64,000 bases of DNA from Picochlorum sp. SENEW3 (Eukaryota): contig CP120458.1 of NCBI GenBank assembly GCA_034226945.1, positions 620,001 to 684,000 of the forward strand, written 5' to 3'. Shown piece by piece: positions 2,711 to 59,790 of the stretch. How positions within the stretch are numbered: the stretch's first letter is position 1; every line of letters starts with the position of its first letter. The position numbers and the translations under genes were made by a program. Under the pieces are notes generated by a model, which saw only the letters and a list, made by a program, of their open reading frames with translations, was not told where the DNA came from and made no database searches.

Positions 2711-2922
2711 GAGGTATGGAAGAGGTCTTGTTTAAGACCCCGAGCTAAATCCACGGTCGCCTAAAATACCCGACCGGCCAAACAAGGTCCAAAATCTAAA
2801 TGTTTTCTAACCCTAATACCCTAATCCCCCGGCCCCCTACCCAACCCTACCCGGTCCCTGGACCATTTGATGGGAACCCCCTAAATTTCAGGGGGTCTTA
2901 AATAAGGCCTCTTCTCTGTATG
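2711..2922 (-). mobile_element. 212-bp non-autonomous DNA transposon (MITE-like), copy 1
   Basis: Reverse complement of 25888-26099; subterminal IR AAGAGGYCTTRTTTAAGACCCC; flanks cgatgatg/ggatgatg (7/8 TSD). Confidence 0.9.
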
Positions 2923-5669
2923 GGATGATGACAATGGAGGATTAATAACTTTGACGATACGGCCAACAGAGACCCTTAAAAGATTCAATTAATGATATTA
3001 TTCGGAAATCTGGGTCATATAAGTAAGCGAAACTGGCGGAAGGTAAAAATTCGGTGAATCGGACGAATTTCGATGTAAACTTTCTAGAACGATAATGCCC
3101 GGTGACACAACCAACAGAATTCAAAAAATACACCGATTAATTGGGTAGAAAAGACTCATAGAAAGGCTCAAAGATGAGGAAGATATTGCGACTAATGTTC
3201 GCGATAGTCGACCTTGACCTCATGGGTTGACTGGGCACCACCTGGTGACAAGGAGAGTCAACGTGCTACTGTGATGTGGTGAGTTGACCAGGCATTTCAT
3301 CAGACACACCTGCAGAATGGAGACTTGTTGCTCTTTGATGTCAACACTGGTGTGGATGACCCTTTTGACTCGAGCTTTGAAGAGCCAAGGCGATGCAAAT
3401 ATCAGATGACAGTCATGAACACGCCAATACCCATCTTCCTCTTCTCGATCGCAGAGAAGGCTACGCCTACGCCCTAGAAATGCGGAGGATGCAAACTACC
3501 ATCTTGAACACGAGGATCTGGACAATTTGTCAGACGACAAAACTAAAAGTTTGAAGGTCATGTCACACAAGAGAAAGACAATCTCTCAGACCAACCTCAG
3601 GCCTTGGACAAATATTTTCAACGTTTTCGTTCCCTGTCTTGTCGTTGGCATACTTCGCTGAACAGCATCTGATTAATACTGTCTCCACAGGCAATAAAGC
3701 AACAGATCTACGCCCTGCTTGGTCAAAAAGGACTCTCTTGGCTCAGGCCTTCAACAAACTTGCAAGGAAAAGAGCCATGAATAATACTACTGGCGACTTC
3801 TTGCATTGGTTTCTCTCTACACTTGATATCTAGTGTCACATCGGATTACCTAGTAAATATCTGCACTTCATCGCTATGCCCCATGATAAGTATCCACACT
3901 TGCAGATCTCTCACAATCCAAGTAAGCTCTCCCAATCTACAAATCAGTTTACCCAAATGTCTATTTACGATCGCTAATCAACTCACAAATCGCCACTTTC
4001 GGCCCTCCACTACTTGTTTATATTTAAACTCGTGGTACAATTTCTGTAAGGTCTTTTTGGACCTCCGGAGGTCGGAGGGGATCCCCTGTGGCCTCGTGTG
4101 GGTTGAGTATCACTCGAGCGTTAACAACGTGGTTCGCAGAATGACCAACACCATTCTGCGAACACAACTCGCGGGTAAGGGCCAGCTGCAGCAAGTATGC
4201 AACAACGAAGAGGGAAAACGACGCAATTGGGAGTAACTAGTCTGTCCCTGACAAGGGTGTGACTGATGCATTGAAGAGAGACTAAAGTCAGATTTGCCTG
4301 AAGTATGACAGCCCTACTGCTCCTGTACGGTTTAGTGGTACCAAAGGTAAAAATTTCACAACCTGGAGCAGTCGTCATTTGGAAGGTCGAGGAAACCTGT
4401 TTCATTCACTAATGCTACACTGGCTCAAACAAAACACTACAGAGAAGTATGTCCAATGGACAATGTACAGGTCAGGAGGTTTTGTATATACAAAGGGATA
4501 TATCCCTTGATAAATTTCTCAACATTTTATTGAGGGATTTCCTCCTGTGGGGCTTGTATGATTTGGAGGATATTCGTCATATTTTTGGACTGTGTAATAA
4601 TCCCCTATTAAAAAAAAGGATTCTGCTGTCTGACCTTCTTCCATCTCTTCTTACTCACTGGTTTCTTGCTTTTTTCCCCTCCCTGGTCTCGGGGATGAAC
4701 TGAAGACCGAGGTCCGTGTTATATGCCTCCACCCGTATGCTTAGAGAATTTTTTTTGTTGCTTGTTTCTCATGCTATCCTGGGCATTTCTAAAGCACCCT
4801 AACAAGCCTGTAACTGGTGAGTGCCATCAGAGTTGATGCAAGCTGTGGTGCATTTAGGCACCTGGGGAGGACAATACCTCAGCCCTCAAGGACTGTACAA
4901 AACAGCCACGTATCTAAAGAAGAGGAGATTTCAAGGTAAGTTCTGTGAGAATGGCCATTTCATCCTCACGCAAGTTTATCAAATTCAAGTACCAGTATAC
5001 GAGGGATACCAGTGTATGATTAATTGATTGCTGCACAATCCACGCTCTATTCGAACCCAACTGCCAGTGAAAACCGAGCAGTGCTGTTGACAAGGAGATG
5101 TGACGGCAAGTATCAAATAGACTGTACCTTCTCGAAGGTGAGTGAGCATACTTCCCATGTCACTCATAATGTGCTGTCACGAAGTGGGATGGAGCACTTG
5201 GTGTCCCTGGTGGCAAGTTTGGAATAATTCATCAGGCGGTCCAATATACCCTCGAATACATCAACTTTCGACACGTATAGAAACAGTGAATATCGCCATG
5301 GAAACCTCGTGTGTATCTCCAGACTCTTTGCTCGTGTAAGCCCTTTGCTTAAAATTTGGTGATCTTGCATATAACAATAGTACTTCATAGGTACATTGCC
5401 ATTGTTTGTTGAATCTAAAAACGTTTTCAACCATTCGAATGTTAAGCCAATCTCAACCCAAAATCAGAATTCTAAGCCTTCCATCAGACAACCAGAGTGA
5501 CAGAATCGTAGCAAAAAGTTTTTTGACAAGGGCACTTCGGTGGATATCTGACAGGATGCTTCGGTGCCCATTAGATGCACTGCATTACCAGCGAATGCAT
5601 GATGTCCTGGCATTTCGGATTAAGCCTGGAAGCCTTGTCATGTGATCGTGCAGAATATAAAATCCACAA

Positions 5670-6623
5670 CTACAGCCCTTGTGACGAGTACAACTGGTTT
5701 CCAGTTGATTGAGCATTCCCATGAACAAATATTGTTCCTTTCGGATACTCAGATGGGCGCCAATCCGACCCTAAATTGTTGTATATGAATTCATGGTATC
5801 GATACTTGGATGCAAACTTGACCTTCATGTCCCAACTTGCGCTATTACCATGTGCCATCCATTCATGGAAAATGAAGGATATCAGGGCATCCCACGCTAA
5901 ATCTGGATGATTCTTTCCAACTTTTTCCACGTAGTTGAACAACTCGATAGAATCGGGTTGCGTGGAATACAGTGCTGCGCCATTAATGTGATCCATGTAA
6001 AAGTGAGGCGAGGCCAAATTCAGTGAGGCCCACTTCTTGTTTTGTGGTATGGATCCTAACATCACATAGTCGACTTCATGGCGTACCACATCTACATACA
6101 GTCTATCTAACCAATTCTTCACCACTGGCTGGACATCATGTTCCATCCAGAAGAATGCCTCATACCCTCTGTGGCGAGCATCAGAGAAGGCGGAATGGAA
6201 CATTTTGTTTGCAGCTCTGGGATAGACTTCGTCTTGTGCCGGTAGATTCACGTTCCAAAGAGAGATGGTATTGAAGCATTTTCTGTTCGCTGTACCCATT
6301 GCAGCAACGAGTTCTCTAAGGAAGACGTCCTCTGCTATCGTATCGTTCAAAGTGTTGATCTGAAATACAAGGTCCACGCGGTTCTTGACGTAGTATGATC
6401 CATGGCATGCTTTGGGCCACACACGCATAGATTGGATGGTTAAATCATATTTATGATTCACTACGGGAACCAAGATAGCAAATGTGGCTCGAGGAGGAGG
6501 ACCAGCTAGCTTCACGCTCCATAGTACTGCGGCGGTCGAGCACAGCGCCAACAGGTATACCTCAACTTTCCGATATCGTTTGCTGTCCTTTTTGTTGTTG
6601 CTGCTTCTTGTAGTGCGACGCAT
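5670..6623 (-). CDS. Type-II membrane protein, putative GT-A-like glycosyltransferase
   Basis: 317-aa ORF; basic N-tail plus TM helix; FFWMEHD (DxD-like) and HINGAALY motifs. Confidence 0.6.
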   Translation of the reverse strand: MRRTTRSSNNKKDSKRYRKVEVYLLALCSTAAVLWSVKLAGPPPRATFAILVPVVNHKYDLTIQSMRVWPKACHGSYYVKNRVDLVFQINTLNDTIAEDVFLRELVAAMGTANRKCFNTISLWNVNLPAQDEVYPRAANKMFHSAFSDARHRGYEAFFWMEHDVQPVVKNWLDRLYVDVVRHEVDYVMLGSIPQNKKWASLNLASPHFYMDHINGAALYSTQPDSIELFNYVEKVGKNHPDLAWDALISFIFHEWMAHGNSASWDMKVKFASKYRYHEFIYNNLGSDWRPSEYPKGTIFVHGNAQSTGNQLYSSQGL

Positions 6624-9029: not shown

Positions 9030-10451
9030 TCAGGCAATGGATGCGACAATTTCTCTAAGAAGTCCTGAATTCTCATTTTCGCGCGTTTTGCGTACAAACA
9101 TATACATATCGTCCGTGAGCTCTTCACGCTTCTGGCTCCATTCGTGAGAATCCTGATGAAGGGCAACCATTTTCCGTGCAAATTCTTCCTCGTTATCGGC
9201 AATTGATAGCCCTAAATCAGGCATAGATCTGGATGCTTTCGATGTCGATATACAGGGAATACAATGTTTAGCTGCAAGAAGGGTCTTAGTATTGACCCCA
9301 GTCCCATAACGAATGGGAGCGATCAGCACCTTAGATTGATTAATCTCTACAGCGAGATCTTGTACAAACCCTAGAAACTTCACATTACTTAAATTAGATA
9401 CTATTTGTTTCCATTCCTGCCAGCAATGTGCAATGGGATTTGACCCTTTGCACAAAGGGTTTCCCCATGGTTCATTACCGATTATTTTTAGGGATGCAGA
9501 TGGCAGGCTCTTCTGTACTAGTGGCCATATTCTCAGCAGGAGCCAATCAAGTGAGTAATAGTTTGTACTCACATGACCATTCCCCACAAAAATGAAGCCG
9601 TTTCGCTCGTGAAAACTCATGCTTCTACTCCACGAGCAATTGCGGCTTGGTAACCCTATTGGCATGACCTTTGGGGTTCTTATGGTGAAATGCGCACTCT
9701 CATCTCGCAAATCCTCATCTGTCAAAAATACATTAACAGTAGCATAAGCATACAATACTTTCATCCTTGCCTTTATCAATTTTCCCTCTTCTTGCATCAA
9801 AGATATCTCCCTTTCTGATGCCGTTGGGGATTTCCTTAGATCTAAATTTCTAGCAAAGTGCGCATCGTCATGAAGCAGAATGGTCTTTGGTGTGACCAAC
9901 AATGCCGCATCATAGGGAATGTACTTGCTTATGATTGGCATGAACCCAGCATTCCAAAACCAAGTTTGGCTCAGCACCACATTGTATCCTTCCCTGTTAC
10001 AGAGGGATGTGAAATTGAACCTCTTGACTGTAAAATGCTGTCTAAATTCATGCAAATAGGAATCTTCCGGAATCTTAGTTATCTCATGTAGCAAATCGAC
10101 GCTGCTCCCGAGAGACTGCAGCAGTCTCACTACTTGAATCAGCCTCTGATCACATCCCAGAGAGGGCATGGGGATGTGTTCAGAGAGAACTGCTGCAATT
10201 AATACCCTTCTCGGACGAAAGAAAAAGGTAATTCTATCTTCCCTCATGATCCATACTATCGTAAGAAATAGTAATGGCAATAGGAATACTCTCAGGAACC
10301 ATTGAAAAATTCGCCGCTCGCATTCTTTTTTCCTGTATGTGAAAGTGGTTGCTGCATGTTGCCTTTTAGCTTTTAATTTTTTCACGCTTGCCCTATTTCG
10401 GAAAAGGAATTTAAAGAGAGGTCCAAGAGATTGGATCGTGGCGAAAGCCAT
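9030..10451 (-). CDS. GT4-type (GT-B) glycosyltransferase with type-II membrane anchor
   Basis: 473 aa; FVGNGH..N, FLGFVQDL and IAPIRYGTGVNTK resemble Glyco_trans_1_4; N-terminal TM. Confidence 0.8.
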   Translation of the reverse strand: MAFATIQSLGPLFKFLFRNRASVKKLKAKRQHAATTFTYRKKECERRIFQWFLRVFLLPLLFLTIVWIMREDRITFFFRPRRVLIAAVLSEHIPMPSLGCDQRLIQVVRLLQSLGSSVDLLHEITKIPEDSYLHEFRQHFTVKRFNFTSLCNREGYNVVLSQTWFWNAGFMPIISKYIPYDAALLVTPKTILLHDDAHFARNLDLRKSPTASEREISLMQEEGKLIKARMKVLYAYATVNVFLTDEDLRDESAHFTIRTPKVMPIGLPSRNCSWSRSMSFHERNGFIFVGNGHVSTNYYSLDWLLLRIWPLVQKSLPSASLKIIGNEPWGNPLCKGSNPIAHCWQEWKQIVSNLSNVKFLGFVQDLAVEINQSKVLIAPIRYGTGVNTKTLLAAKHCIPCISTSKASRSMPDLGLSIADNEEEFARKMVALHQDSHEWSQKREELTDDMYMFVRKTRENENSGLLREIVASIA

Positions 10452-11546
10452 TTCATTTCACTTCAATATCTGTTGATTTGCAATATCTTGACAGGCTCAG
10501 ACCGTAGATGACAGACCAGCAAATTTGTTTTTAAAACATAATATGCGCATTTGAATGCGCAAAAGCCCCCGCACTTCGTAGGTGCCATGTGCTGCGGCAT
10601 TCCCGCTTATAAGCGGGATCACCGCCGTATTCACTTACAGAAAATGTGGAAACCCCCTTGATTTTGGGTCGCTGATTTCGTCGCGCACAGGGCGTTATAT
10701 ATTCCCGCTCGTATATATTATTGATCAGTGTTACAAATAGAGTATCTCGTGAGAATTTGAGGCGAAATGGCCCGCGCAATCGGGAGTTCGCCTCTCGGAG
10801 TGCGAGGCAGATGCGCTTGAAAACGGACGTCCAAAAGTTGTGCTATCGGCGAGAATACGGGGTTCCCACGACGAATTGTGAAATAATAATTATATATGCA
10901 ACTTTTTGAACACGCGGGAGCGATTGAAACGGCCCCAGGAGGTAGGAGCGAGTGTGGATCAAAACAACCTTGTAAGAGGCTGGTCGGCAATTTCGGAAAA
11001 TTTTCGCAGCCGGATTGTACTTAATATATCTAATTACAACAGATCGTTGCTCGCCCCCTCCGGGGCTGCTCGATTTTTTTATATTTTTTACACGACACTT
11101 TACAATTCGATTTATTCACTGCTTTTTCCCCAATGATCACCCCTTGTTGTGCCACTGTAGGCACTGGGGCGACCATTGGGGAAAAACCGTTAACCGTCTG
11201 TTGCCAGACGGCGAGTCCTCTCCATTCCACGTCTATTCACACCTGCACCACACATAATTGTCAGTTCTTACCTTTATTAATTGTTTGGCGACGTGATTGG
11301 AGGGACTCTATACCTGCAGGCACATATACAAGGGTGGTCGTTAGTGATGGAATGTCGTTGGTCACGCTGCGAGCGAGTCGCTCTGCTACGAATTTGGAAC
11401 TTACATGAGAGTACATTGTTCATTTATTGATATTGTATCATTCTGAGGCTGTATGGTCAGTGCTAAATATTCACTTGGAAAAAACTATACCCGTCCAACC
11501 CAACCGCCCGGCTCTCTTGTGCATCTCCAGGGTGCTATGATGTGGG

Positions 11547-12987: not shown

Positions 12988-15900
12988 ATGAATTGCGATA
13001 CGGAGCGAAGTGTGCCCCAGGGTTGGGAAAGGTCAAAGAGGAGGAGAACTGGAACAAAAGAGGTATCCAAGCTGTGGACCGACTTCTACCAGTCATGCCT
13101 TCGCCTAGACCCTGAATGCCAACCTGCTATGATTGAGTATGATCAGGAATTGCAGCAGTATTGGTGCCGAGTGCAGTGCCCCTACGGGAAGTTTTGTGGG
13201 TATCATGGGGCACCTCACATCTATAAGAGGATGCTACTCGCGAAACCAAGAGAGCAAGATCGAAGGAAGTTGCTGGAGCATGTCAGAAACAAGCATCCAG
13301 AGATTGCCCTGAGGTTTGACGTGGCTGTGATGGAGGAAGAGGATCATACGGGCCACCAAAAGAGTCCAGAAGATGCTCCAAGGATTCAACTAGATGGACA
13401 AGTGTCCACCCCACTGCTTTGTAGTGACGAAGATCCAGCACTAGTGTCTTCTGAAGATGCAGAAAAAGCATTGCAATCATCCGATGAATGCAGTGTGTGC
13501 ACTGAGGTGAGACGACGCATGTCATCCTTCGTGATCCAAGCCTATAACCTTCTCAAGAGTGAGTCTTGTCTTGCAGGATCTTGAGGACAGCGACGCTTCT
13601 GATGATGAGGAGGCCGACCCAGACGACTTTGATACACCTACTAATGAGCGCTTCCGGTGCACCCAGGGTTCGCATTTCAAAAGTTTTCTCATGGCAGTGT
13701 TGGGTGAGGAAGAAGGAAACGATATTGGTCAGGCAGGGGAAGACATGGGTGAGGAAGATGAGGCACCCTGCACTTTGCTTCAGCTAACCTCTGCACTGCT
13801 CGAGCTAGAAATAAAGCACGCTATATCAAAGAAGGCGATGCAGGACATCTTGAGCATAGTGCGAATGGGGAGGAGAAACTATGACAGGATGATCATCCCA
13901 CCATCAATTCATCTTCTGAGGAAGACCATGGGTGTTCCAGACCTCCAAACTGTCGAATACCATAAGTGTCCCTGCGGATACATCTACAAGAATACTGTAT
14001 TACCCAACGAAAGGAATAAGGACGAAGAATGTGGAGCGGGATGTGGTAGGAAGAGGTTCAAGGCAGATAGTTGTGGGAGCCCAAAACCTTGGCAGCATTT
14101 TTACTACTATGGCGTCGAGAATTGCATCAGGAGTCTCTTTTCTTCCCAGAAATTTCGAGATTCGAGGAGCAAGAGCGTCGAGAGTGATCGCGCAGGAAAT
14201 TCAGTATACAAGTCTGCATGGTTCAGATGGCTGACAGAAAAGGAACCCAATGCAGGGGACAAAGTGACCAGTATTTGGTCCATCGGCATTGATGGATCTC
14301 AGCCATTTGGAAGAAGGGCCCATTCTTGCACTTTGATTGTATTGAAGTGTGAAGATATGGACTCGGAAGGCCGTTACCTGAGTTGTAACAGTAGGCTCCT
14401 TGGAATCATTCCTGGTCCAAAGGAGCCCAAAGACCTGAATCCCTTCCTATGCTTTATTGGTGAGGAGTTTGAGCGACTTCGATCATCCACAATGTCATAC
14501 GAGTACCAGGAATGCGATGAATCTGGTGAAGCCATCAAATATTCTGGAACTCATCGGCCTGTACTGGGATTTATTTATGCAGATGCCAAGGCAAGAGAAA
14601 AGGTCCATTTGTGCTTCCCAGGGAATGCTATCAAAGGCTGTTATTTCTGCTGGCAGCATGCCTCACAAGTTCTGGAACAAGAAGAAGGGACGTCTCGCAA
14701 GCGACGATTGTTCACAGGCTATGTGGAGAATGATGCAGCAACGCATGTCAATGGCCTTAATGAACAAGTGTTCAAGGCCTCTAGGGCCTCCGGGGCCTCT
14801 AGTGCCTCCAGAGATGATCGCCCTGCCATCGAAAAATCCGTTATCCGACATGCCGACATGGAGAAAATATTGAATACCATGAAGAATGCTACATTACATG
14901 GTACACATGACGGGACAACCCTGAAGGAATGGCAGAAACGGCTTGGCATTTACGACTATGCAAAAGTGTTTCATGTTGTCCCCACTTTACATGTCAAGCA
15001 TGGCATACCCGCCCCGCTGTACCATTTGGTTCTTTTGGGACTTGCGAAGAATTTCATCAAGTATTTATGGGATGGCCATGGTAATAAGAAGACCAGTGAT
15101 CCCGATAGCAGGAGTATGAGAGTCACCAGCAAGGAGACTATTAAACGATTGGAGAAAGGAATCATTCTGAGCAACTCTTTCAACCGTCCGTACTCGTCGA
15201 TAGAGTACTGCAATGGTTGGATTTGCGAGGAAGTCAAAGTTTTTATAGAAGTGCATTCGTGCGCTCTCTTCAATGAGGAGGTGACGGGCGTTCAAGTGCT
15301 CACACCAAAGGCCATGGAAGCTTGGGGACATTTGAGGAAATTCACCATGCATCATGTGAGCCATGGAGAGGGCTACAAACTCGAGCCATCGACAGCCTTG
15401 GAACATCTCAAAGAATTCTCCAGGATATGCCAGGAAGAGAAGGCATACGAATTGCTGACGCCCAACCTTCACACAGCCAACTGCCTCCTCCACCATCAGG
15501 AGAACTTCCTTGGCCCACTGGACAAGATGTCAGAACTCTGGGTGGAACGGGCCATGCGTCTTGTTTCTTCCACGAGTTGTATAAATGTTCCCGAATCAAC
15601 TTTGGCAAAGCGATATCTCATTAAAGCTGCTTTAGAGAGAGCAAAGCGGGAACTTGGGCCAGCTGACCAGAGTGCCATCCCTACATATGCCCCAAATCGA
15701 CAACGACTTGTCTCAGGGATGATGTACGACCTGCAACCGCATGCAACGTATTATCTTCGTGGGAAAGGGTCGGAGCAAAATGTAACCGGTTGTATCCAGG
15801 CCCGAGATTCTGCCAAGGATAAACTGAAGGCGTCTGTAGAGGGAGAGAAGGTGAATCTCCTCAGGGAATTCCATGCAAAACACAAGAACGAAAGGCCGAG

Positions 15901-16423
15901 AGAGCCGCAAAAAGATATCATATTGTACAACCATGCATCGTGCAGTATTTTGGTGGATGGCAAGGGCTTCAGCATCAAGTCGTTCTATGAGAAACGGGAC
16001 AAAAAGAGGCGGTCACACTTTGTCTTGCTAAGGGACAAGGATTCTGAGGCTCGCCATATTGGCCTAGTGTACGACTTTATCCGCATATTCAGTCCTCGAG
16101 CACCGGATGAAGTGGAAAGACACGCGGTTTGTGGGATATACAAGACTTCGAGGATGAATTACCATGGATCCACGGTCTACACAGTTCAAGAGTTCAAAGG
16201 GGAGAGCCCATGGAAGGATGACAAACATGTGACAACAGTACCAATCACAGATCTCGTGTGTCAGGTTTCTTGTTTCGAAATGATCAAAAATGGTTGGAAG
16301 GGAGAATGGCCCCACCACAAACTTGTAGGAGGCGGCAACAGAAAAGAAATGGACAAAATGCTTGCCTTCTTCCCGACGAAGGGGTCCACCTTCGCAACAG
16401 CGGAAGATACTGCTATCGAATAA
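12988..16423 (+). mobile_element. EnSpm/CACTA (CMC)-type DDE transposase gene, 2 exons (intron 13507-13576)
   Basis: GIDGSQPF, GIIPGPKEPKDLNPFL, ADAKAR..GCYFC, YHLVLLG and TPNLH..GPL..WVER motifs; a GTGAG...TTGCAG 70-nt intron joins ORFs 12907 and 13559 in phase 0. Confidence 0.85.
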
Positions 16424-16648
16424 TGATAAACATATAATGTATTGAAATTCTGCGACAGACAGCGTTGAATCATGGCTATTATGCAAGAATCGGTGCCTTG
16501 TGGTGGCCTCCGGAATTTCCTTAATAAGTACCACAGGTCGACGTCCAGGCTTCTCAAAATTTTCACACAACCCAATTTACTCAGAGGTCCATAACTTTTC
16601 GAATATCGCACCAAATCTCGCCATTTTTGTTTCAATAGACATATTTTC

Positions 16649-19600
16649 TTACCATCTTTCCGGTGAACCGGTCGAAATAATAAAATATTGGCCAGACAGC
16701 TCGGTTTCTGAGGCCTCCTCTGGCCCATCCTCTTGAGCATCCCTGTCAGACTCTCTGGCACTGCTTCTCATGGTTGTGTTTGTAGAGACACTGCTTGATC
16801 CTCTTCTTTTGCTTACTTTTGAGCCGTATAAAGGCTTGGGGCGTTTTCGGCCGTCAGCAATGCTCAAACAAACAGAGCAGGGATGAAAGACCTTTGAATA
16901 CAATTGCAGCTCTTCGCGTGTAGCTTGCTGGATATGATTCTCGTCCAAACCGCAATGTGAGCACACGTTCAAATTCCTCTTTTGATGCAAACGGTTTCCA
17001 AAAAAGTAAGAACTTTCCATGGGAGTGCTGCATGTGAGCCCATCCCTGAGATAAAAGCTGTAGTCTTGCCGCTTCTGTCCTTTGTTGGCTCCTTCAGAGT
17101 CATCCTCGCACGTCATATCCACAATATCATTAGATCCGATATTAGATTCATGTAAATTTGATGCATGAATGACCTCTGAGCCACAGACATACATGTCCAA
17201 ATCGTTCAACTTCTTGATGTATGCCTTCTCATCCTTTGAAAGAGATTGTTTGGCATTCTCCAAATATATAACCCTCTTCTTTGAGCAGTTGCTACAATTC
17301 AAGAACGACCTTGCTCTATTGGCAGTATATATGCTGTGCTTTCCTTTCCGATCAGGTTTCGAATCTCGAAGACTTGGCTGTTCCATGTGGTTGGGGTGTG
17401 TCCCATACAACTCATCAAATGATTTGTAGTGTAGCTCATTTGGCCCTGCTTGTTTCCTCAATGGCAAAGGAACCCAGTTTAAGTCTTCAAATGATTCAAA
17501 ATCCATTCTCGGCGGCTTGATGATGCAACCTGTGCAAAATCTACAATCACAACCTGCCTTTTTCCTGATTTGCAGGACATACGGGGATTGGTGCACATGG
17601 TTTGTGAGGAACTCTTTTAGGGCACTTCCTTTTTTGAGAAACTCTGTAAAGTCTATTGAATTTCCACTGGAGCATTGCTCTTGGAATGCCTGTGGAAATT
17701 CGTCCAACTCCAAGAAGATAGATATGAATTCTGATATATCATTCCAATCTGCAGCTTGGTATAATTCGATGTCCTTCTCTTTCCATTGAAGCCTCTGCAT
17801 TCTTCCACCTATCACATCGATGGTTTTCTTCAAGCTTTTGTGAAGCATCTCTTGAAATGCTTGTGTTCCACCTTGATATTGCTTTGCTTTCTGGCGAACA
17901 GCACCCATTGAGTTGCATCCTTTCAATTCATCTTCCAAATCAGGAAGATGTTGCCTACAAAGGGAAACATTCTGCAATGCCAGATTCAGTACTGACATTA
18001 CTCTTTCTACGGGATTGCGAAAAGATAAATGTGGAACGGTTCGAGCGACAACCAGCATATCGAGGTCATGTTTCAGAAACAATGAAATGTGTGATGCAAT
18101 GACAGTTGCCCTTTTCAGATTCCTATCTGGGCCTCCATCCGTCAAAAGCATTAAAACAGGGGAATGCTTGTCTTTTAGATGCCTTGAAAGTTCTTCAACA
18201 TGTCTCCAGGGGCACGATTTCTGAAAGACTGCATCTTTTAAACCAACTGATACTTGCCCTTTGTACCAATCACCAGTGACTTTCTCAGGTACGTCATGGG
18301 CCAAGTAGACAGATGGAACAATGCAGGTTCCATCGTAATCGTGATCCAACGCAAGCATTTCAACACCAGCAGGTGCTAACTGGGGCTTATTCCTCACTCC
18401 ACTTTGCAGATATACTCCAGGGGGACCAACCATCACTCTGGCTTTATCATCAGCGCAGAAGAAGGAGCAGTGATCTCTGTATCTCACAGCAAATGATCTC
18501 AAATATTTAATGATAGCGTTTCCATAATGTGCATCAATATGGTCTATGTGAAGAATCCTTCGCTGTACTTTCATTTGAACATTGAAACGACTCTTGAAAC
18601 GAAAAGATGTCAGGCGATTACTGGCGCTTGGCATGAACTGCAGATACAGAGTTGAGGTGGATGGGACGAGATCCTCGTCATACCTTTCCTCCAATTCCTT
18701 CTTCATACGATTCTTTACCGTTTCATGCAAGTCTCGAATGGATATAACGCTAGAAAGATATCCCATTTCTGCTTCACCATGCCTTCTTGCATGCGCTGCA
18801 TCTGCAGTCTCGTTCAAGAACTCGCGTGTAATTCTCCAGAACTCGGCGAAAGCAACCTCTTCTCGGCGCCCATTCATTTTCCTTGCATCTTCTAATATTG
18901 ATCGATCTCCAGATAAAATCGCAAGTTCAAGTAAATCCTTCTGCTGCTGAGAAGTTTCATTTTCTGCTGCATATTCATTGCCAAGAAACTCAGAGCAGAA
19001 GGCCCTGAGCAATGGAACATCAGGAAATAAAGTGTTTGCTTGCCTGTCAAACGCCTTTTGAATCCACTTTTGGACGTAACACGAACTTGACCTTCGGCAC
19101 TGCTCGATTGCATCATTTACTTTTTGATCATGGTCCTTGTCTTTACTATCCACCTTGAAGATCCACACTTCGTCACGGAGGCTTCCACCATGCTCCACAT
19201 GCACCATCAAGGAATTGAATTGGATTTTGACATTTCTACGAAATTCCCAGTACGAGAATCTGCTCGTATAATCAGGAGTGAAGTCAATGAGCGGCAGTGG
19301 TTTGTACATCGGTGCTTGACTTAGTGCATGATTCAACTTCTTGTATTTTGGTGGTGGAGGGAGGAAGTGTGAGCGCACAGTGCAGATTTTTATTTTTTGG
19401 TTCCCTAATGAATTGGCGTTCCAATCCTCCCAAGAAGCATTCCACAGCTCTTTCACTCGCTTTGTCGACTTCCTCTGAGCCCTTTCAATGCACTCTTCAG
19501 TCTGGGCCCCAACTGACTCTAGGAGCCCATTCAGGAATTCAAACATCTGACCACTCCCTTTGGTAAAACAGACACTATCAAGTATAGCAGTCAGCTTCAC

Positions 19601-44790: not shown

Positions 44791-45777
44791 CTATCCAGTC
44801 TCTTTGGCCACACAGACTTTATAACCATTTACTTGGTAACGGGATTCATGCATATTGCTAATACTTGAACACTTGATGGCTCCCATCTTTTGAACACTGT
44901 CGAAGAAAAAATGATGGAGAGATTCATGACTCAAGTAAAGCTTGTTGCAGAGCCACAAGAAAGGCTTGAGGCCTCCATTGCATTTATTGATAAAGGTGAA
45001 GAAACCATCCACCACTCCAAGCCATTCAGAATTTATAAAATCATCCAGAACAACAAATCCTTGCTTATGCAACACTGACTGGGCTAAAAACAGATCATTT
45101 AGTGTTGTTCCTCTTGTATGACCCCCGTCAACTGAAAAAATTCGATAAGATATGTCTGATATTGCTTTCAATCTCTTGGAGGTTATTGAATTGCTGTCTC
45201 CCTTTTCAACTTTGATGGATTCTCTTGGGAATCCAATACTTGATGCATGCTCCAAGAAAATTTGCAAAGATCCCTCACCGGAACCATCAACATTCAGATT
45301 CTGATCCTCGAATATATCAAATGCGACTGCATATTCCGGAGCAACGAGATTTGTTGCGAGCGAGAAGAAATACTTTCCATGATGAACTCCTATCTCCCCA
45401 ATTAAGCCTGACACACCAGCTTCAAGCTGTTGTTTGGAAAGATATTGGACCACTTGATGATGGATTGGGCACATCCATCCATCGACGAATTGTGAATGGT
45501 TCAAATATGATATCTCCAAGTCTGATTTTGGCAGTTTGGAAACAGTTTGTAAGGTAATTTGGTCCTGTAATAAACCATTTTGGAAGCGAGTATTGCACTC
45601 GTCTTCAGAGATGCCTCTCTCTCTATATATATATTTATATACTAATGATGTGCTTAATAGCAGTAGAGCATACAGGAGTCCAGGCAACGTATTATGCTTT
45701 CTGTAAGGTGGAAACAGCTGTTTTACTAGAAGAGTTGGGCCGCTTTGAGGAATATCGAATTTTGCAGCATTTCTCAT
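44791..45777 (-). CDS. Class I SAM-dependent methyltransferase (Methyltransf_24-like) with type-II TM
   Basis: GEIGVHHGK, FDIFE, GDS, SVDGGH and VVLDDF motifs. Confidence 0.85.
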   Translation of the reverse strand: MRNAAKFDIPQSGPTLLVKQLFPPYRKHNTLPGLLYALLLLSTSLVYKYIYRERGISEDECNTRFQNGLLQDQITLQTVSKLPKSDLEISYLNHSQFVDGWMCPIHHQVVQYLSKQQLEAGVSGLIGEIGVHHGKYFFSLATNLVAPEYAVAFDIFEDQNLNVDGSGEGSLQIFLEHASSIGFPRESIKVEKGDSNSITSKRLKAISDISYRIFSVDGGHTRGTTLNDLFLAQSVLHKQGFVVLDDFINSEWLGVVDGFFTFINKCNGGLKPFLWLCNKLYLSHESLHHFFFDSVQKMGAIKCSSISNMHESRYQVNGYKVCVAKETG

Positions 45778-45794
45778 TTTAAAAGTTTTGGAAG

Positions 45795-47140
45795 AATAAA
45801 CATTCTCGCGGGCCCCTTATTGACGCGAGTCTCATGACATTTGAATCGACGCATTGATGTTAACATCCAAACGTTTGGATGGAAATGACGGATGGACCGC
45901 CCTTTCAGTAGAACAGTAGGTTTGGGCAAGCCCTGAGTTGGAAACATGCATGTTTTGAAAATCCTGTGGTGAGACTGAAACCTTGTATGGTCCTTAGTAT
46001 GAATTTGTAAGCGTTCTGGGTTTCTTTGGCACCTGTTCGAAGTCACAGGATTCTTGAAATTCCATTGCACTAAAGCAGTATAGATCACTGGATCGACTGG
46101 CATTGCATAAATGCAGTGTTCGACACGCCCACAAAGCTTCATTTGCGATTTGCCATGGCCTGCTATCGATACGAATCTACCAAACTTGTGAATAGGCTGA
46201 GCAGATCTGCGTTTTCATTCTTGCAACCACATCCCCCTTTTGCAAAATATCTCCTTTAAGGATCTTAATAAGATCTGTAGGAGGGAAAGGCTTGGCTTGT
46301 AACTGCTTTCATGTTCAACATCAAACCTCGCTGCATCTACATTGATTCTGTCTAGAATCAGAATGCACGCCCATCGTAATGGCATGCTTGATCCTCATCA
46401 AGTACTTGACACTAGTGTCACAGCTCGAGAGAACCACATTTATTATACTGCTATGACGTTTGTATTGTTGCCCTTGTGTCAATACTGAGCAGCTATATCG
46501 ACCATCAATCCTCACGTTCACAATTTCATGTACATATGAGTTTTTGGCTAAGGCATCGCGCATCATGGCCACAACAGCACCGCACTGAGAGCCATGAAAA
46601 AGAAATATGGTAGCATGCAAGCATTTTAGCGGGCAGTAGCAGAAACGAGCATGCTATGAACCAACAGAAGTCCGAAGGTATACTCTGGTGATCAACAAGT
46701 GCATGATATGGCTGCGATACATTCGTACCACAGGAATTGAAGGAGATTCTGACGCCTCCACCTTCATAGGGAATTGGCATTCGAGTGTCGGCTGTTTGAT
46801 TTGTAGCGTAGTCGTAACTTTTCCATCTGAGATGTGACTTGGCTGCAGCCATGCAGCTGCATGAGCATTGCAGATAGCATCTGATTTAGTCTTCATGACA
46901 TTTCCGCATGGAAGTGTCACGATAGATGACATTCAGGAGCAAATATGCACCAAAATATGGCAGATTGCTGTAGACTATGCTTCCACCCGGGCGATGGAAC
47001 CTGGGGCAGTTAGCCTTGAGCAATGACAGCCTTGGCCCAAGATCAGGTGTCATGAATAGACGAAAGTCGCCTATAAACATGCCAATTTGACCGGACGGTT
47101 GGACACCCTCTATCTATGAATAACAGCATCCCATCACAGT
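45795..47140. repeat. Right arm of the inverted duplication (with internal indels)
   Basis: Reverse-complement similarity to 39703-41450. Confidence 0.9.
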
Positions 47141-47244
47141 GGATCTTTGACCGCTCCGCAAACATCACCCGAATTGTAATATTCTCGGTCAAAATCAGCC
47201 TGTGATGGGAAACCAAGTGTGGCACGACATGCTACCCTGAGATG

Positions 47245-47729
47245 AATCTCGTGATGGTACGTACGTACGATAGATCTATCGCGATACGTATACGTATCGA
47301 TCAGAATCTCTTTGTACACCATGTTCTTCATCCACAGCTTTCTCTGGTCGTCCGGCTGTGGCCCAAACATCCACAGGTTTTGGTCATCTCCACACCGAGA
47401 CAACACCACGTACAACGTGTGCGAGAAAAGACATCGTCCTGGAGATACACTCCAACCCTCTGGAGTGTGAGTCCCTGTGCTTTGTTGATGGTCATCGCAA
47501 ACGCCACGTGGATGGGCATCTGTGTCATGCTGAGCACAAAGGAGCCCAGGCTCTGTGTCGTCACCACCCTGGTGATGTTGCAGGGGGCAATGGCCTATTT
47601 AAGGCCCCCAACTTGAGCCTGATGACGTGTGGCGGCAGGCCACTTTTCTTGATGCTGGCGAGATACTCCTCCGGGTATTCATCGTCCCTCTGGTGCCGAC
47701 CATCGGTAATCCCATTGATAGACACGAAC
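47245..47729 (-). mobile_element. Decayed copy of the Helitron helicase 3' region (matches ~30785-31338)
   Basis: Encodes FAMTINKAQG and DDQNLW; internal deletion at an atcacca microhomology. Confidence 0.9.
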
Positions 47730-47730
47730 T

Positions 47731-47762
47731 TAGGGCCTTAAATAAGGCCACTTCTCTGTATG
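47731..47762 (-). mobile_element. Solo left end of the 212-bp family abutting the Helitron fragment
   Basis: tagggccttaaataaggccacttctctgtatg (2 substitutions relative to 25544-25575). Confidence 0.8.
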
Positions 47763-47927
47763 GACGACCTCGCGAGGTCTATGTATATATATACGTATAG
47801 GTCTACGTATATACGTAGAGGTATATACCTGAAACACCTTGGTGGTATCCCTTGTGTGGTAAGTTCCATCGCGACCGACAATTGTCGCATGTTGCAACAT
47901 TTGAGGGCATCCGCCCCATAGAAGATT

Positions 47928-49549: not shown

Positions 49550-52168
49550 TTACACAAATATTAGACGTCTTGCTAGATCATTCAAATTCTGAAAAACTTC
49601 ATCGAGTACTTGTATGGCTCTTGAGAATGAATACCTGCTCGCGATCTTCTCCAATCCATTGGAAGCAAATTGTCTAGCAAGATGGGGGTCTTTCCTCAGT
49701 TCTGAATAGGACCTGACGTATTCCTGAATCTCTTCCGCCAAGAAGTAATCAGTATCTGCACTCAGACCCATTCCTTCGAGTGCTATCCTACTGCCAATCA
49801 CAGGGACGCCGTGAAAGTATGCAGCAGCCACTTTCCCCTTGACTCCTGCTCCGGTTGATAGCGGTACAATGGCACACAGCACCTCTGCATATAATGAGGT
49901 CAGGTCATCATCTGTCATAAATCCATGGAATCGAATCCCCTTATGATGACTCAACTGCTTCAGCAAATCTTCTGGAGGCTGGTGCGATCCTACAATGTGC
50001 ATCACAAAATCTGAATGGTGTTCACGAATAGCATCAGTGACTAGAATTAGGTTTCTTACTGCAACTACATTTGGCACGTGCTGAAAACTTCCAACAAAGA
50101 TTCCTCCATGCCTCCGTTTTAAATATGAACTTTCATCTTGCAGAAGTTTCTGGCCCACAGAAATGGATTCATCAGGATATATGTTTGACACAATCTTCAT
50201 CTTTGATCCTGGCATCCCTTGCAGTTGCAACACGTAATCTTCCACATCACTCATAACAAGTGTCATCACCGACCTGGTAACAATGTCCAACTCACTCTGC
50301 AGTCTTTTATATACTTTAGTTACATTAGCAACCAAATCAGGAGTGACATGAGCCTCCATGTCAAGGTGTGCCATTGTTTTTTCAATGCACTCCTTCTTAC
50401 TGTCAAGATCTTTCCCTTCACCACACAGGGCCAGCCGGATGGCCTCTTCTGGCGATACATATCCTTCTTTGTTCTGCTGCAAAATCTCCCTCGACTCCCG
50501 AAGGAAATGCAAATCCACCGTGTCGTACACGATGGGCACACCTGCACAACACCTACCAATCATCCCAATGACATCCTCTGCCGTGTTTGGTCGGGCAATG
50601 AATATAGCCTTGTAGGGACACTTGGCCCTTCCACACAAAGCCTCTGTCTTATTAGGCTGCAATCGAATCCCGCGAGATCGAATGTATGCCACATCAGCTA
50701 GCCACTGCTGCGGAACGAAATAATGAATGGGAAGAAAGTCAACTTGGATATCAGAGTTTAAGAAGTACCGTAGGATTTCCCACATTCGCTGAGATCCGGA
50801 GTCATATGAGGGTGTAGGTATCACTTGATCTATCCATAAAATCAAATTTTTAATATATCTTTCCCTCGTCGCGAAGAATGGGGTTCCTTCTGGCATATGA
50901 TGCACCAGTGCATCCTTCCATTTCTCTTTAAATATTTGTCTGTTCTTGCTCATCAACAATCGCTTTTCCTTGGAATCTGCCCCAAATGTATTTCCTTCTT
51001 GATGATACACAACAGCAAATGGCTGGAGCACCACCCTCAATCCCACATTCCTCATAGCCATTGCTAAATCAGTATCCTCGTAATACCCACGGCCATAGAC
51101 CCTATCAAAGCCACCCAATTTCACAAAAACCTCCTTCTCCACAGCTATACAAGCAGCAGAAATGTAATCTACCTGATGTGCCATCAATAGCTGCTTTGGT
51201 ACCCGCGTATACCCTCGAAACGCATTCGCAGCCCCTGCCTGGTTGTAGATCACCCCACCAAACTCTTGAATATCCCTTTGCCCCAAAAATAGGGGACCTG
51301 CGATTCCAGCCTTTGGATATGTCACCAACGTATTAATCAGCGCGCCTACAGCACCATTACTGACCATCATATCATTATTCGCAAAAAGTAAAACACTTCC
51401 TCGTGCAATCTCTGCACCCTTGTTGCAGGAAAATGAATACCCTTCTGACACATCATTCCTCAAATATGTGTATCTAAAATCATACCAGGCGCTCATGTCC
51501 TTCAAACACGATTTGACAATAGATACATGCTCTAAGTAACTTTCATCATCCACCACAACGAATTCCATCTTGAACTTGACAGAATCCTGTGCAAGTTCAT
51601 GCACACTCTGGCACGTCATTTGCCCTTGATTATGAAATGGCATCACCACAGATATCAACGGATCGGCAGCTTGGTCATGATGATGATTCTTTTTGTTACG
51701 GTTTCCATCACGAATGACTGAGACATCCTTGCCTAGCTTGAGATTTTCCTTCAGGACAGAAAACTCAGTCTTCCCCAGACGATGATGCCATGGCACCACA
51801 TCAGACTTTCTCAAAGATCCATTGGCACAAACAGGTCCAAGAACCTTCATAATTGCCTGATCTTCGAAGCATCCACCCAGGAATGGCTGCTGTCGAAGCT
51901 TCTCATTCAAGCGGACAATGTCAGGATGACGTGCCCAATGTGGAGCAGGTTGTTTGGACAAATAAAGCAAGCGAATCAGAAAGGCGCTTGATCCTACTGT
52001 ACACAACCAAATCAAGCAAATAACATATTTAAGATGGAAATAATTCCTGAGAATGCATCGTGCATCATAGAGAACTCGAGTGATCTGTTTTCTTCGTTCT
52101 ATCCATCTTCGTCTCGACTGGCCAGTTCCATGGAAGATGGACCGCTTGCGGTTCTCATGATGGTACAT
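49550..52168 (-). CDS. GT2-GT4 fusion glycosyltransferase with type-II anchor
   Basis: ISVVMPFHN, VVDDES, LFANND, GGFD..YYEDTD, P.P..DSGS.R, YDTVDLHFLRE, VGSFQHVPN, GAGVKGK. Confidence 0.9.
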   Translation of the reverse strand: MYHHENRKRSIFHGTGQSRRRWIERRKQITRVLYDARCILRNYFHLKYVICLIWLCTVGSSAFLIRLLYLSKQPAPHWARHPDIVRLNEKLRQQPFLGGCFEDQAIMKVLGPVCANGSLRKSDVVPWHHRLGKTEFSVLKENLKLGKDVSVIRDGNRNKKNHHHDQAADPLISVVMPFHNQGQMTCQSVHELAQDSVKFKMEFVVVDDESYLEHVSIVKSCLKDMSAWYDFRYTYLRNDVSEGYSFSCNKGAEIARGSVLLFANNDMMVSNGAVGALINTLVTYPKAGIAGPLFLGQRDIQEFGGVIYNQAGAANAFRGYTRVPKQLLMAHQVDYISAACIAVEKEVFVKLGGFDRVYGRGYYEDTDLAMAMRNVGLRVVLQPFAVVYHQEGNTFGADSKEKRLLMSKNRQIFKEKWKDALVHHMPEGTPFFATRERYIKNLILWIDQVIPTPSYDSGSQRMWEILRYFLNSDIQVDFLPIHYFVPQQWLADVAYIRSRGIRLQPNKTEALCGRAKCPYKAIFIARPNTAEDVIGMIGRCCAGVPIVYDTVDLHFLRESREILQQNKEGYVSPEEAIRLALCGEGKDLDSKKECIEKTMAHLDMEAHVTPDLVANVTKVYKRLQSELDIVTRSVMTLVMSDVEDYVLQLQGMPGSKMKIVSNIYPDESISVGQKLLQDESSYLKRRHGGIFVGSFQHVPNVVAVRNLILVTDAIREHHSDFVMHIVGSHQPPEDLLKQLSHHKGIRFHGFMTDDDLTSLYAEVLCAIVPLSTGAGVKGKVAAAYFHGVPVIGSRIALEGMGLSADTDYFLAEEIQEYVRSYSELRKDPHLARQFASNGLEKIASRYSFSRAIQVLDEVFQNLNDLARRLIFV

Positions 52169-54331: not shown

Positions 54332-55396
54332 TCATCCTGCATGACGGTGATGATGGTTTTGCTGCTTGTGTTTTGAAACATGAAAAAGGAGTGTCCGGGA
54401 TTTGAGAATCATGGCATTCCATAGTCGATTCTTTCTGAACCAGTTGACATGCCTCAAATACGCTACGACAAGCGCGATCAAAAACGCCACCTTGAGCAAG
54501 AATTTCAGCGCACTCGTGGGCCCATGTTGGTGTCCAATGGAATTCAAGGTTGGTTTGACCACCAGTGACGAAAAGTCGTCATCGTCTAAATCAAATATGA
54601 GAGGATCGTACTCGATGCCATCCTCGGCAAAACTCAAGCAGCGTTCCACTTGTGGCGCAGTCCATTTTGGAAAGGTGCTGCACCGCTGCTTGAGCTCTGG
54701 AATAATCTTGGTGTCCAAAATGTGTTGAAAATTCATTTCCTCTTCCTGTTCCTTTTGTTTTCTTTCTTCTTCTTCTTCCCTTTTTCTCCTCTCCTCCTCT
54801 TCTTTCCGTCTCTTTGCTTCTTCCTCCTTTTGCTTTTTTGCTTCCTCTTCTTCTTTCTTCCTCCTCTCCTCTTCCTCCTTTCGTTTCCTCTCTTCCTCTT
54901 CTTTTCTTTTTCGTTCTTCTTCCTCCTTTCGCTTTCTCTCCTCTTCTTCTTTTCGTTTTCGTTCTTCCTCTTCCTTTCGCTTCTTCTCCTCTTCTTCCTT
55001 TCGCTTTCTCTCCGCTTCCTCTTCTATTCGCTTCCTTTGCTCCTCTTCCTCCTTTCGTCTCTTCTCTGCATCCTCCACTACTGCATCTGCCTTTTGCTGC
55101 ACTGCCTGTGTGTCCTTCTCTAGATGCATCGCTTGTTTGAATTTTTCCTCAACCTGAGCCAGGATTTCTTTTTCAATTTCAGACTTGAGTTTGTCTTCCT
55201 CTATCCTCTGTTTTGCTTCAGCATCTGCGGCATTTTGCTGCAGTAGTTTTCTTGATACGCCACGGGCAACGACAATGTCAGTCGCTTTTGCCCGTACATC
55301 ATCATTATCGAGTCCCAATACAGAAAAGAAAGGACCACAACTCCAGAGCAACACAGAACCTAGGAAGATCCATAGCAATCTTGCCATTCCATCCAA
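54332..55396 (-). CDS. Membrane protein with E/K/R-rich single-alpha-helix repeat
   Basis: Signal peptide, RKLLQ, (EEERKRK)n and C-terminal TM. Confidence 0.8.
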   Translation of the reverse strand: MDGMARLLWIFLGSVLLWSCGPFFSVLGLDNDDVRAKATDIVVARGVSRKLLQQNAADAEAKQRIEEDKLKSEIEKEILAQVEEKFKQAMHLEKDTQAVQQKADAVVEDAEKRRKEEEEQRKRIEEEAERKRKEEEEKKRKEEEERKRKEEEERKRKEEEERKRKEEEERKRKEEEERRKKEEEEAKKQKEEEAKRRKEEEERRKREEEEERKQKEQEEEMNFQHILDTKIIPELKQRCSTFPKWTAPQVERCLSFAEDGIEYDPLIFDLDDDDFSSLVVKPTLNSIGHQHGPTSALKFLLKVAFLIALVVAYLRHVNWFRKNRLWNAMILKSRTLLFHVSKHKQQNHHHRHAG

Positions 55397-56070
55397 AAAG
55401 GTAGGCAGTTATTCAGCCAGTGCCAAAAAATGCAGAAAGTGAAAGTTTGTAAGACTTCTGGAAACGTTGGTCGATCAAAGATTGCTCACACAAATGCTTG
55501 ATACAGTCGCATATACAAGCGTAAGATTTCTCTGTTGATGTATATACACCTCGATGCACCCAGTGTGGTCTCAAAACGAAATAGTATTTAGTAGTGGATA
55601 CAGTGCCGATGTATGAAAGACGATTAGATTTTTCTATTGATGGATGGATGTACGCGCGAATTGTAAAACAAATACATAAAATATACGAATAGGCTACAAT
55701 TTGTCGCGGGATACAAAGACCTACTTGTTTTAGGTTTTCGTAGGTCTCAACGCATAAGCCCTCTGACAATCACATTGTCAGATGCAATCGATGGATGTGT
55801 CCGGTCGAGTAGTCACAACGTCCGTGGTGGTCTGCATACGGCCCAGCTGAGCCGTATACGGCGAGGTCATCCATCCAGGCATCCATGGCAACTGGATCAA
55901 GTAATAATAATTCAGTGCCCACTTCATTCATATCATCCACCCCGAATGTGGAAATGTATGTACTCCACTGGGACCCATGACAAGAAAAAAGATCTATTTT
56001 CTTTGGAAGACGTGGTATCATCATCATCATGGCATACGAACACACAAAAAACTCACACAATTTTCCATGA

Positions 56071-57865: not shown

Positions 57866-59595
57866 CTAGTCACCACGGAAAGAAGAGGAATTAGGGGGGT
57901 TCAAAGCAGTTGACACTTCCAAAGTTGCGACAGAAATGGCCTTCTCGCCGCCAGCAACATAGTAAAGATACAACTTTGAATCATCCACAAACACATACGG
58001 ATCTCTCAGTTGTCGGACTGTACCAGGGGCTGCGCCAAATTTGGAGGGGACCAAAGGCATATTCACTCCCTCAAAAGGGAGCTCGGGCTCAAGAATGGGG
58101 ACACCAATTCCTACCTGCCATGCTCTCCAATCATCCCAGGGATTCATGATTTCAGTATAGTAAATCCTCTCGGGTGCCTCATCTACAACTGTGTAAAAGA
58201 TGTAGACTTTTCCTTCCCTGACTAGGACAGAGGTATGCCGGCTTCTAGGGAGTATGTGTGGACCGGGATCGAATTGTGTCAGTCCATCTCGTGACTGAAG
58301 AATCATGCTCGAACTATTGCCATTTTTTGCCAAACCGTAGAAGTGGCCCCCCATGACAAAAGCCCGCAAGTAAAATGGAGCAATTGCATTCATTGAATGC
58401 ATGAAAAATACTTTGCCATTCGTGCTGGTTGCAACATATGTGTATTGGCCATTGCGCCCAGCGGCATGAAAATACATCCTGATCGTTTCAGAGGCCTTGT
58501 CTACATATATATCCGGACTTGCTATATGGGCATACCACGCATGCTATTCTGATTTCTTTACCCGAATGTCCTGCAAAATACATGATGTAACGAACATTGA
58601 AATCCATCCACATATCAGTCTTGATAACTGTAGGGCCATTGATATTAGCCAAACCTGTACTGGCTTGATCCAGTATGGGAATCTGACGAAATCTCCTAGG
58701 GACAAAAAAACAGAAGAGTAATTGTAGCCTAGATCTCTTCCGGCCTCATACGTATCGATATTGCTGAAATAATTTAGGAAATGAGTCATGTTCTTGTGAT
58801 ACATTGATGTAGTGCGCCATCCTTGGCTGAGTTGATGTTGCCTGAATGCCACGTGATTCAACCTTGATGGAGCAGGCTTTTCCGGATTCTCCTTAGAAAG
58901 CATCTTGAAAAAGCTATTGATGACTTCCTCATCTTTCTGATTACTTGAAGCGTACTCTTTGCAATGAGCTTTAGTTTTTCCTTCTCTCCATTCACTCAAG
59001 TTTGATGGGAGCAAAGACAGCAGCAATCGACTACCATCTCCATGCCTCAAGCCTACATGTCTAACAATAGAGTGTAATGCTGGCAGTACTTCATCTTCAT
59101 TAGATAGCATGGAATATTTGATAGATAAAACTCTAGGGTGCTTCAATAAAGATACCATTGCCCGGTTGTCTGATGTCCATCGATCTAGCCCTGCTCTATA
59201 GGCTTTTTCTGATGCTTCCTCACTTAATCTCATTGATATTGATATCGCCGTATCTAATGGATCTCTGTATATGTAAAGGAGGTACGTACGTTAAAGGACA
59301 AAATGAGACTAGCATTATAGACATGGATGGGTGTTTTCTCAACCCATGCCTTGAATCCACCCTTCAAAGCCTCCTCATCCCAAGCCTGCATGATCTTCTT
59401 TGCTTCATCCACTGTGGAGGGATTCCAATTGGTGACAGAGGCCAAGGTGCTGGGTATCACCGTGCACCATGGGACAGCACCACCGACGGTCGACTGGGAA
59501 AGCAAACTGAACAGCATCCCAACGACAGCCAAGGTCATCAAAGCTAACAGGAGCTCCTGTTTTGGAAAGTTCCGATTGTGGAACACCTTTGTCAT
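57866..59595 (-). pseudogene. Sulfotransferase plus five-bladed beta-propeller (GH43-like) fusion, frameshifted
   Basis: TM; WVEKTPIH and YRDPLDTAIS (sulfotransferase); NINGPTVI, YIMYFAGH, SPDIYVD, RMYFH and QLRDPYVF (propeller) spread over several frames. Confidence 0.65.
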
Positions 59596-59715
59596 TTGGG
59601 GAATCCTGGATGCTGCAAAATTCAACAGAGTGCTACACGAGGTCCTGAGATAGATTATAGGACGATTATGCATGCTCGAAATGTTGCTCTTAGACCCGAA
59701 TCGCCTCGAACCCTC

Positions 59716-59790
59716 CATACAGAGAAGAGGCCTTATTTAAGACCCCCATCAAATTTCGGTGTATCCCATCAAATATCAGGGGGACCGGGA
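59716..59790 (+). mobile_element. Left end of a related subfamily of the 212-bp element
   Basis: Identical first ~32 nt, then similar through cccatcaaat...gggaccggg before diverging. Confidence 0.85.

Follow-up and report, generated by a model that had tools for sequence, protein, structure and literature searches.

As a rule, a cut-and-paste transposase acts on a pair of ends of which one is the inverted copy of the other, and families whose outermost bases differ between the two ends are rare, examples being Dada and the Mutator-like elements without terminal inverted repeats (non-TIR elements). A stretch of 64,000 nucleotides (nt) from Picochlorum sp. SENEW3 (contig CP120458.1, positions 620,001 to 684,000; hereafter the window, with position 1 as its first letter) holds several copies of a short non-coding element with two dissimilar tips, and it thereby raises the question of how an element of this kind is recognized, cut and moved. 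In this study, the full copies and lone ends of the element were delimited by self-comparison of the window and by BLAST, and their junctions were compared with contigs of public runs and of metagenomes. The element probably represents a family of DNA transposons of the cut-and-paste type, short and non-coding, from a green alga of the Picochlorum type, similar to MITEs (miniature inverted-repeat transposable elements), for which the transposase is supplied in trans.

The three full copies proposed by the first-pass annotation of this DNA were all recovered (Table 1); their length, originally given as 212 bp, is 213 bp, since the element starts one base earlier, with CCATAC rather than CATAC. 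Copies 1 and 2 show 100% identity over 214 nt, and copy 3, which is ~92% identical to copy 2, is the oldest full copy. The first C of copy 2 now lies across an inversion breakpoint, away from 25888-26099. The solo left ends reported earlier, including a degenerate one, were likewise found, and a further degenerate left end was added to them (25865-25887). The lone end at 59715 is directly preceded by CT, as is the element at the left junction of copy 3. A 20-nt inverted-repeat pattern, allowing three mismatches or fewer, occurred at ten places in the window against 0.01 expected; one of the ten matches, at 49313, was rejected because it looks like chance.

In the common orientation the left end reads CCATACAGAG and then AAGAGGCCTTATTTAAGACCCC, and the right end reads GGGGTCTTAAACAAGACCTCTT and then CCATACCTC. 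The outermost 9-10 nt (left, CCATACAGAG; right, CCATACCTC) are not inverted copies, as had been noticed at the outset, and the inverted repeat begins only inside them. Comparison of the ends also bore out the inner 22-bp inverted repeat, which contains the palindrome GGYCTT-N4-AAGRCC, and a direct repeat is present at both ends, reading CCATAC rather than the CATAC first given. Genomic copies in the contigs of public runs lose their match at 25577 and 26101, 1-2 nt from the termini, and such sharp boundaries, common to identical and diverged copies, support a mobile element. In being short, non-coding and multi-copy, with target duplications and empty sites, the family agrees with the definition of a MITE; the inverted repeats at the very termini that also belong to this definition are absent from the 213-bp element. 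The interior of the element (25930-26010) carries G-rich telomere-like repeats, GGGTAGGG, with GGGTTAG and ATTAGGG runs.

The target-site duplications were characterized next to these boundaries, and contigs of four public runs (X1, X5, X6 and X19) were aligned to window positions 16500-35500. The duplication had been described as 8 bp long; it is 7 bp in three of the four complete elements, namely copy 1 (GATGATG), copy 2 (CAGCCGT, 26100-26106) and a mini element on the metagenome contig L062 (AGTATGT), and a length of 8 bp was found in copy 3 alone, as CCAAATGA together with two extra bases, CT, at the left junction. The chance of a perfect 7-bp repeat is ~1 in 16,384 per junction, and no length other than 7 bp accommodates copy 1, copy 2 and the mini element at once. 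Reading 8 bp is possible for copy 2 and the mini element only with a right end that stops at CCATACCT, a choice that copy 1 contradicts. No motif is common to the four target sites, which are mutually unrelated.

Two empty sites were identified. The first is an uninterrupted paralogue, GGTCCAGTATGTCAAGC, located on the same contig (L062) as the filled site. At the second, the reverse complement of 25585 onwards joins via CCAGCCGT to 26107 onwards, with the 7-mer present once; this empty site of copy 2 is supported by contigs of X1 (two), X6 (one) and X19 (one), as well as by loose ends in X5 (three contigs) and X1 (one). The contig joints at copy 2 fall at 25575/26109 and 25582/26102, and the loose ends lie before 25575. 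In the window itself, an inverted twin of the copy 2 duplication, ACGGCTG, stands at 25577-25583, beside the lone left end that finishes at 25576, and the arms of an inversion are formed by two left ends, inverted to each other and perfect over 30 bp (25546-25576 and 25888-25917). The single 7-mer in the uninterrupted joints indicates that copy 2 entered by plain insertion and that 25577-25887 was subsequently inverted between the left ends. A reversed-ends transposition model for copy 2, which involves a right-end/7-mer/left-end junction, was rejected; the joints correspond to the empty site and no such junction was seen in these contigs.

The same data bear on whether a transposon is involved at all, as the copies might instead derive from segmental duplication or from an assembly artefact. 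The region of copy 2 is indeed rearranged, and the window stretch is repeat-dense. However, the three copies are located in unrelated flanks, each with its own short direct repeats, two empty sites exist, and relatives are found in independent metagenome contigs, all of which renders such an origin highly improbable.

We infer DDE chemistry from what is directly observed, namely the copies, their exact ends, the duplications and the empty sites, since target duplications with empty sites imply staggered double-strand cuts in the target, which are the signature of a DDE transposase. The first-pass annotation had compared the element with DDE elements and also with HUH elements (Replitron, IS200/605), and the target duplications argue for a DDE mechanism and against an HUH one. 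Elements of the IS200/IS605 and Replitron types are not known to duplicate their target, and they depend on hairpins that are stable in a single strand. The family resembles them in its sub-terminal palindromes and in short direct repeats at or near the ends, and it differs from them in its duplications and in the weakness of its hairpins. The inverted repeats had been called hairpins, and their palindromic sequence is real; their single-stranded fold is weak (-2 to -7 kcal/mol; z -0.8 to -1.6 versus shuffles), with an energy not better than that of 15-37 of 200 shuffles. This weak fold suggests that the palindromes may serve as a two-fold-symmetric protein-binding site, and not as functional hairpins.

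On this basis, a transposase supplied in trans would bind the 22-bp palindromic repeat located 9-10 bp inside each end. Excision would take place at fixed outer positions, although the outermost 9-10 bp differ between the ends, and insertion would occur at a 7-bp staggered cut, the fill-in of which would yield the 7-bp duplication.

Relatives outside the window were sought by scanning metagenome contigs with a loose pattern, which matched at least 100 stretches, and true relatives were checked by BLAST. At least two contigs, L062 and L058, carry relatives among the matches listed; a match on L016 was dismissed as chance, inside what looks like a bacterial gene, and no relatives of the element were found in the viral contigs and prokaryote genome contigs searched. 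L062 contains one family version of ~124 bp plus one mini element of 50 bp, in which both outer ends are kept around a single palindrome, with AGTATGT on each side. Family members of 213, about 124 and 50 bp all retain both outer ends, and this size series is the pattern expected of deletion derivatives moved in trans. Furthermore, left ends of 31-33 nt carry five different interiors: a helicase fragment, a Helitron 3' tail (an X1 contig), the 3' untranslated region of a Mutator-like gene, an open reading frame (ORF) family in L058 and the sequence at 59715. The sharing of the terminal binding site alone is typical of such trans-moved families. The ORF in L058 (513-1231) starts inside the left end and belongs to a Picochlorum-specific multi-copy family of about 310-370 amino acids (aa), in which neither a known domain nor a recognizable transposase was found (eight matches, three of them from one genome).

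A different type of machinery is encoded 0.8 kb from copy 2, where a Helitron RepHel gene combines Rep with a PIF1 helicase (Helitron_like_N, 5.6e-51; PIF1, 5.3e-42). The family could accordingly be a non-autonomous Helitron2-type rolling-circle element moved by this adjacent gene, with the palindromes as terminal hairpins and the inner repeats as asymmetric terminal inverted repeats. Helitron2/Helentron elements (HINE/DINE) are alike in having asymmetric ends, inner inverted repeats, palindromes near both termini and a RepHel nearby. In addition, a left end lies just upstream of the RepHel start in three loci, its outer side always towards the gene: in the window, the degenerate left end adjoins an inverted copy of the RepHel leader (25806-25856 versus 26849-26899); in a paralogue in X19, a joint from 25577 to 26679 puts the left end before RepHel; and in L058 (83-430), ~70 bp separate the left end from a RepHel N-terminus with a match to that of the window at E 3e-12. 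Left ends are also fused in sense to Helitron 3' parts in two cases (47291-47763, and an X1 contig joining 25912 to 31492). However, Helitrons make no target duplication and Helitron2/Helentron elements insert at TT or T-rich sites, according to the excerpted text of PMC5148889, whereas the family shows 7-bp duplications with empty sites, at varied sites that are not TT or T-rich. With respect to the nearby left ends, RepHel is in every case on their outer side, not between element ends, and the window RepHel copy has no right end downstream and possesses a plausible ordinary Helitron CTAG|T 3' end of its own (31516-31520). The hairpins are, moreover, weak. Rolling-circle movement by RepHel is improbable in view of these features. 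The association of left ends with the RepHel start at three loci would be accounted for by a preference for gene 5' regions or by fragment capture; a functional tie of the element to RepHel would be a more daring proposal, with a lower likelihood than the undescribed DDE lineage considered below.

For a DDE mechanism, the candidate put forward in the first-pass annotation was the Mutator-like (MULE-SWIM) transposase gene abutted by one solo end, and this gene is the only window candidate from the superfamily group making long duplications. The window copy is a pseudogene (a stop at 22620, a 1-nt frameshift near 24051 and four extra nt at 24967); an intact form is found elsewhere (P0006, 797 aa), and the gene, which is transcribed, is covered by X19 contigs that show splice-like GT..AG joints. 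The window protein falls below the Pfam cut-offs (ZSWIM1-3 RNaseH-like, 1.5e-3; SWIM, 0.08). An exhaustive homologue search gave 314 matches, and among the 38 longer homologues scanned, picked by length from 150 listed, 33 matched Pfam MULE (PF10551), 29 of these at or above the curated cut-off. It follows from these matches that the neighbour is a real Mutator-superfamily protein, as had been proposed.

The lone left end at 25546-25576 lies 239 bp beyond where the intact form has its stop codon, and its inner side faces the gene. Non-autonomous Mutator-like elements (MULEs), such as non-TIR MULEs and Pack-MULEs, offer parallels: a SWIM transposase adjoining one end, a duplication of the long class, short termini that are the only part in common around foreign or captured interiors, and some ends in gene 5' regions. 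Against these parallels stand several differences from MULEs. Gene copies ~99% identical to that of the window are present in X5 and X6 and diverge from it at 25521, 25 nt before the lone end, so that close copies elsewhere have no end at that place. Upstream of the gene, no right end, left end or inverted partner was found, the alignment scores being at the level of shuffled controls. The 213-bp family has no long terminal repeats, and its 7-bp duplication is below the 8-11 bp published for Mutator-like elements in the excerpted text of PMC6446971. Two apparent partners were rejected as noise: a right-end-like match at 21275-21306, which rests on flank letters, and an inverted partner of the 3' region of the gene, with a score of 19-21 versus shuffles reaching 28. 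In X5 and X6, the Mutator-like 3' region is directly followed by ACGGTTGG (from 25521), a sequence that differs in one letter from ACGGCTGG, the 8-mer coming after the window's lone left end. The Mutator-like neighbour is a tentative candidate for the driver.

Elements of the Zisupton type had also been named as fitting 8-bp duplications. Zisupton/KDZ elements make 8-bp target duplications, and they are comparable to the present case in this long duplication and in the SWIM finger of the transposase. Neither the neighbouring transposase nor P0006, its intact form, gave a KDZ match, however, and homologues of the neighbouring transposase match Pfam MULE, not KDZ. The one KDZ match, on P0009, came from a chimeric gene model, in its front half, which is unrelated; this KDZ part is absent from the window, and P0160 had no match to the KDZ model protein.

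In layout, the ends come closest to those of the Dada transposons. As described in the excerpted text of PMC3706591 (Kojima and Jurka 2013), Dada transposons make 6-7-bp duplications, have no terminal inverted repeats, carry short sub-terminal inverted repeats equidistant from both termini (at a distance of 14 nt), include internally deleted non-autonomous derivatives and have one member in Chlorella variabilis; those with defined ends are inserted in small nuclear RNA (snRNA) or transfer RNA (tRNA) genes, and the transposase has D-68-D-176-E with CCCC and CCHC fingers. Within the limits of that text, the present family agrees in the length of its duplication, in having no terminal repeat, in a sub-terminal repeat equidistant from the ends (at a distance of 9-10 nt here), in its deleted derivatives and in its trebouxiophyte alga host. 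It differs in that the 213-bp family occurs at unrelated sites, not in snRNA or tRNA genes, and in that its repeat is 22 bp and palindromic. The element may, on these grounds, belong to the Dada superfamily or a close analogue and owe its movement to a DDE transposase of the Dada type from another part of the genome, and the 9-mer CAGAGAAGA, which is a Dada-U6 sub-terminal repeat and U6 part in the same text, does occur at positions 6-14 of the left end. Relative to the nearest terminus, this 9-mer has the reverse orientation and is therefore a lead only. The four target sites share no motif, unlike the snRNA or tRNA gene targets of those Dada elements for which ends have been defined, and the large ORF at 16649-20488 has D-104-D-44-E by motif reading, not the D-68-D-176-E of the Dada text. 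Membership of Dada, or of a close analogue, is on balance rather unlikely.

In Rfam, no family reached the gathering score in the window and there was no U6 match in 25500-26200, the stretch with copy 2; a U6 origin of the left half of the element was discarded, with no Rfam match at E up to 10. A Dada-type transposase was not recognized among the window ORFs, no search with a Dada query having been made.

With regard to the driver, the Mutator-like neighbour receives a tentative share, a Dada-like transposase a smaller one, and some other DDE transposase the remainder; the Mutator-like neighbour is no more likely than a DDE transposase, Dada-like or other, encoded elsewhere in the genome. The ends might further define an undescribed DDE lineage, possibly a free-roaming algal branch of Dada, in which the transposase would read the sub-terminal palindrome only and cut at a set distance of 9-10 bp on its outer side. 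The terminal bases would then be free not to mirror each other, and the direct CCATAC would give polarity. This last proposal is more speculative still, and we consider it doubtful.

A number of observations weigh against a two-ended cut-and-paste family served in trans. Copy 3 does not fit the 7-bp rule. No element bounded by a left and a right end and containing a transposase was found in the DNA examined. Right ends are confined to short elements (five of five), whereas left ends also occur solo, which a simple two-ended family does not predict, and the left end before RepHel at three loci is explained by a DDE mechanism only via a preference for gene 5' regions. The divergence of the Mutator-like gene copies before the lone end, the missing partner upstream of the gene and the short duplication count against the Mutator-like link in particular. 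Cut-and-paste movement by a DDE transposase acting in trans nevertheless remains the probable explanation.

The surroundings of the element are rich in other mobile and variable sequences. The window is eukaryotic, and proteins nearly identical to those it encodes carry names from the green alga Picochlorum. An 18-kb cluster of transposon genes in the window comprises a CACTA-like ORF, a DDE-like ORF, the Mutator-like gene and the Helitron RepHel gene. The first two (13535-16423 and 16649-20488) had no Pfam or PDB sequence match and hit only unnamed eukaryotic clusters; the CACTA and IS630/Tc1 classes, to which their motifs point, make 2-3-bp duplications, and both ORFs were set aside as drivers for this reason. 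The stretch 31716-35500, with two spliced ORFs, is deeply covered in X19 and almost absent from three other DNA runs, which cover the adjoining transposon genes, and it looks strain-specific. A large inverted repeat (39669-41454 / 45795-47210), with arms of about 1.6 kb that are 83-93% identical, flanks an ORF with a methyltransferase domain (44791-45816). Glycosyltransferase ORFs (a GT2+GT4 fusion, GT4+DUF5672 and GT4), together with a weak sulfotransferase match, are located among the repeats at 49550-52168, 62292-63998, 9030-10457 and 58544-59290. Finally, a CT-rich tandem array at 54742-55062, with ten copies of a 21-27-nt period, lies inside an ORF at 54332-55408.

Table 1. Copies and ends of the element and neighbouring transposon genes in the window
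Feature	Position	Strand	Remarks
Full copy 1	2711-2923	-	213 bp; GATGATG at 2704-2710 and 2924-2930
Full copy 2	25888-26099	+	right duplication CAGCCGT at 26100-26106; 100% identical to copy 1
Full copy 3	35536-35748	+	CCAAATGA at 35526-33 and 35749-56; extra CT at 35534-35
Lone left end	25546-25576	-	30/30 identical to left end of copies 1 and 2
Lone left end	47731-47763	-	inner side joined to helicase gene fragment
Left end	59715-59789	+	~75 nt common to the family, then unrelated non-coding sequence
Degenerate left-end remnant	2557-2571	-	
Degenerate left end, newly found	25865-25887	+	
Inverted segment	25577-25887		starts with ACGGCTG (25577-25583), finishes with degenerate left end 25865-25887
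Mutator-like (MULE-SWIM) transposase gene	21378-25307	+	intron 22826-22893
Helitron RepHel gene (Rep + PIF1 helicase)	26917-31355	+	read in three frames; not demonstrated as driver
Helitron helicase fragment	47291-47729	-	copy of 30785-31327, inside lone left end 47731-47763
Large ORF	13535-16423	+	CACTA-like motifs by eye
Large ORF	16649-20488	-	IS630/Tc1-like DDE motifs by eye, D-104-D-44-E; covered by spliced X19 contigs

The initial suggestion that the family may be undescribed stands: no description of it came up in full-text searches that included Picochlorum, a scope outside which Repbase and Dfam lie. Families with asymmetric tips are informative on how transposon ends are recognized and cut. 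The present family is small and has been active recently, with two identical copies and empty sites in other populations, and it also serves as the mark of an inversion, in a part of the genome that is rich in repeats and varies between strains. Picochlorum is a biotechnology alga with a genome of 13-15 Mb, and in a genome this small the rules for the ends and for the duplication are directly testable.

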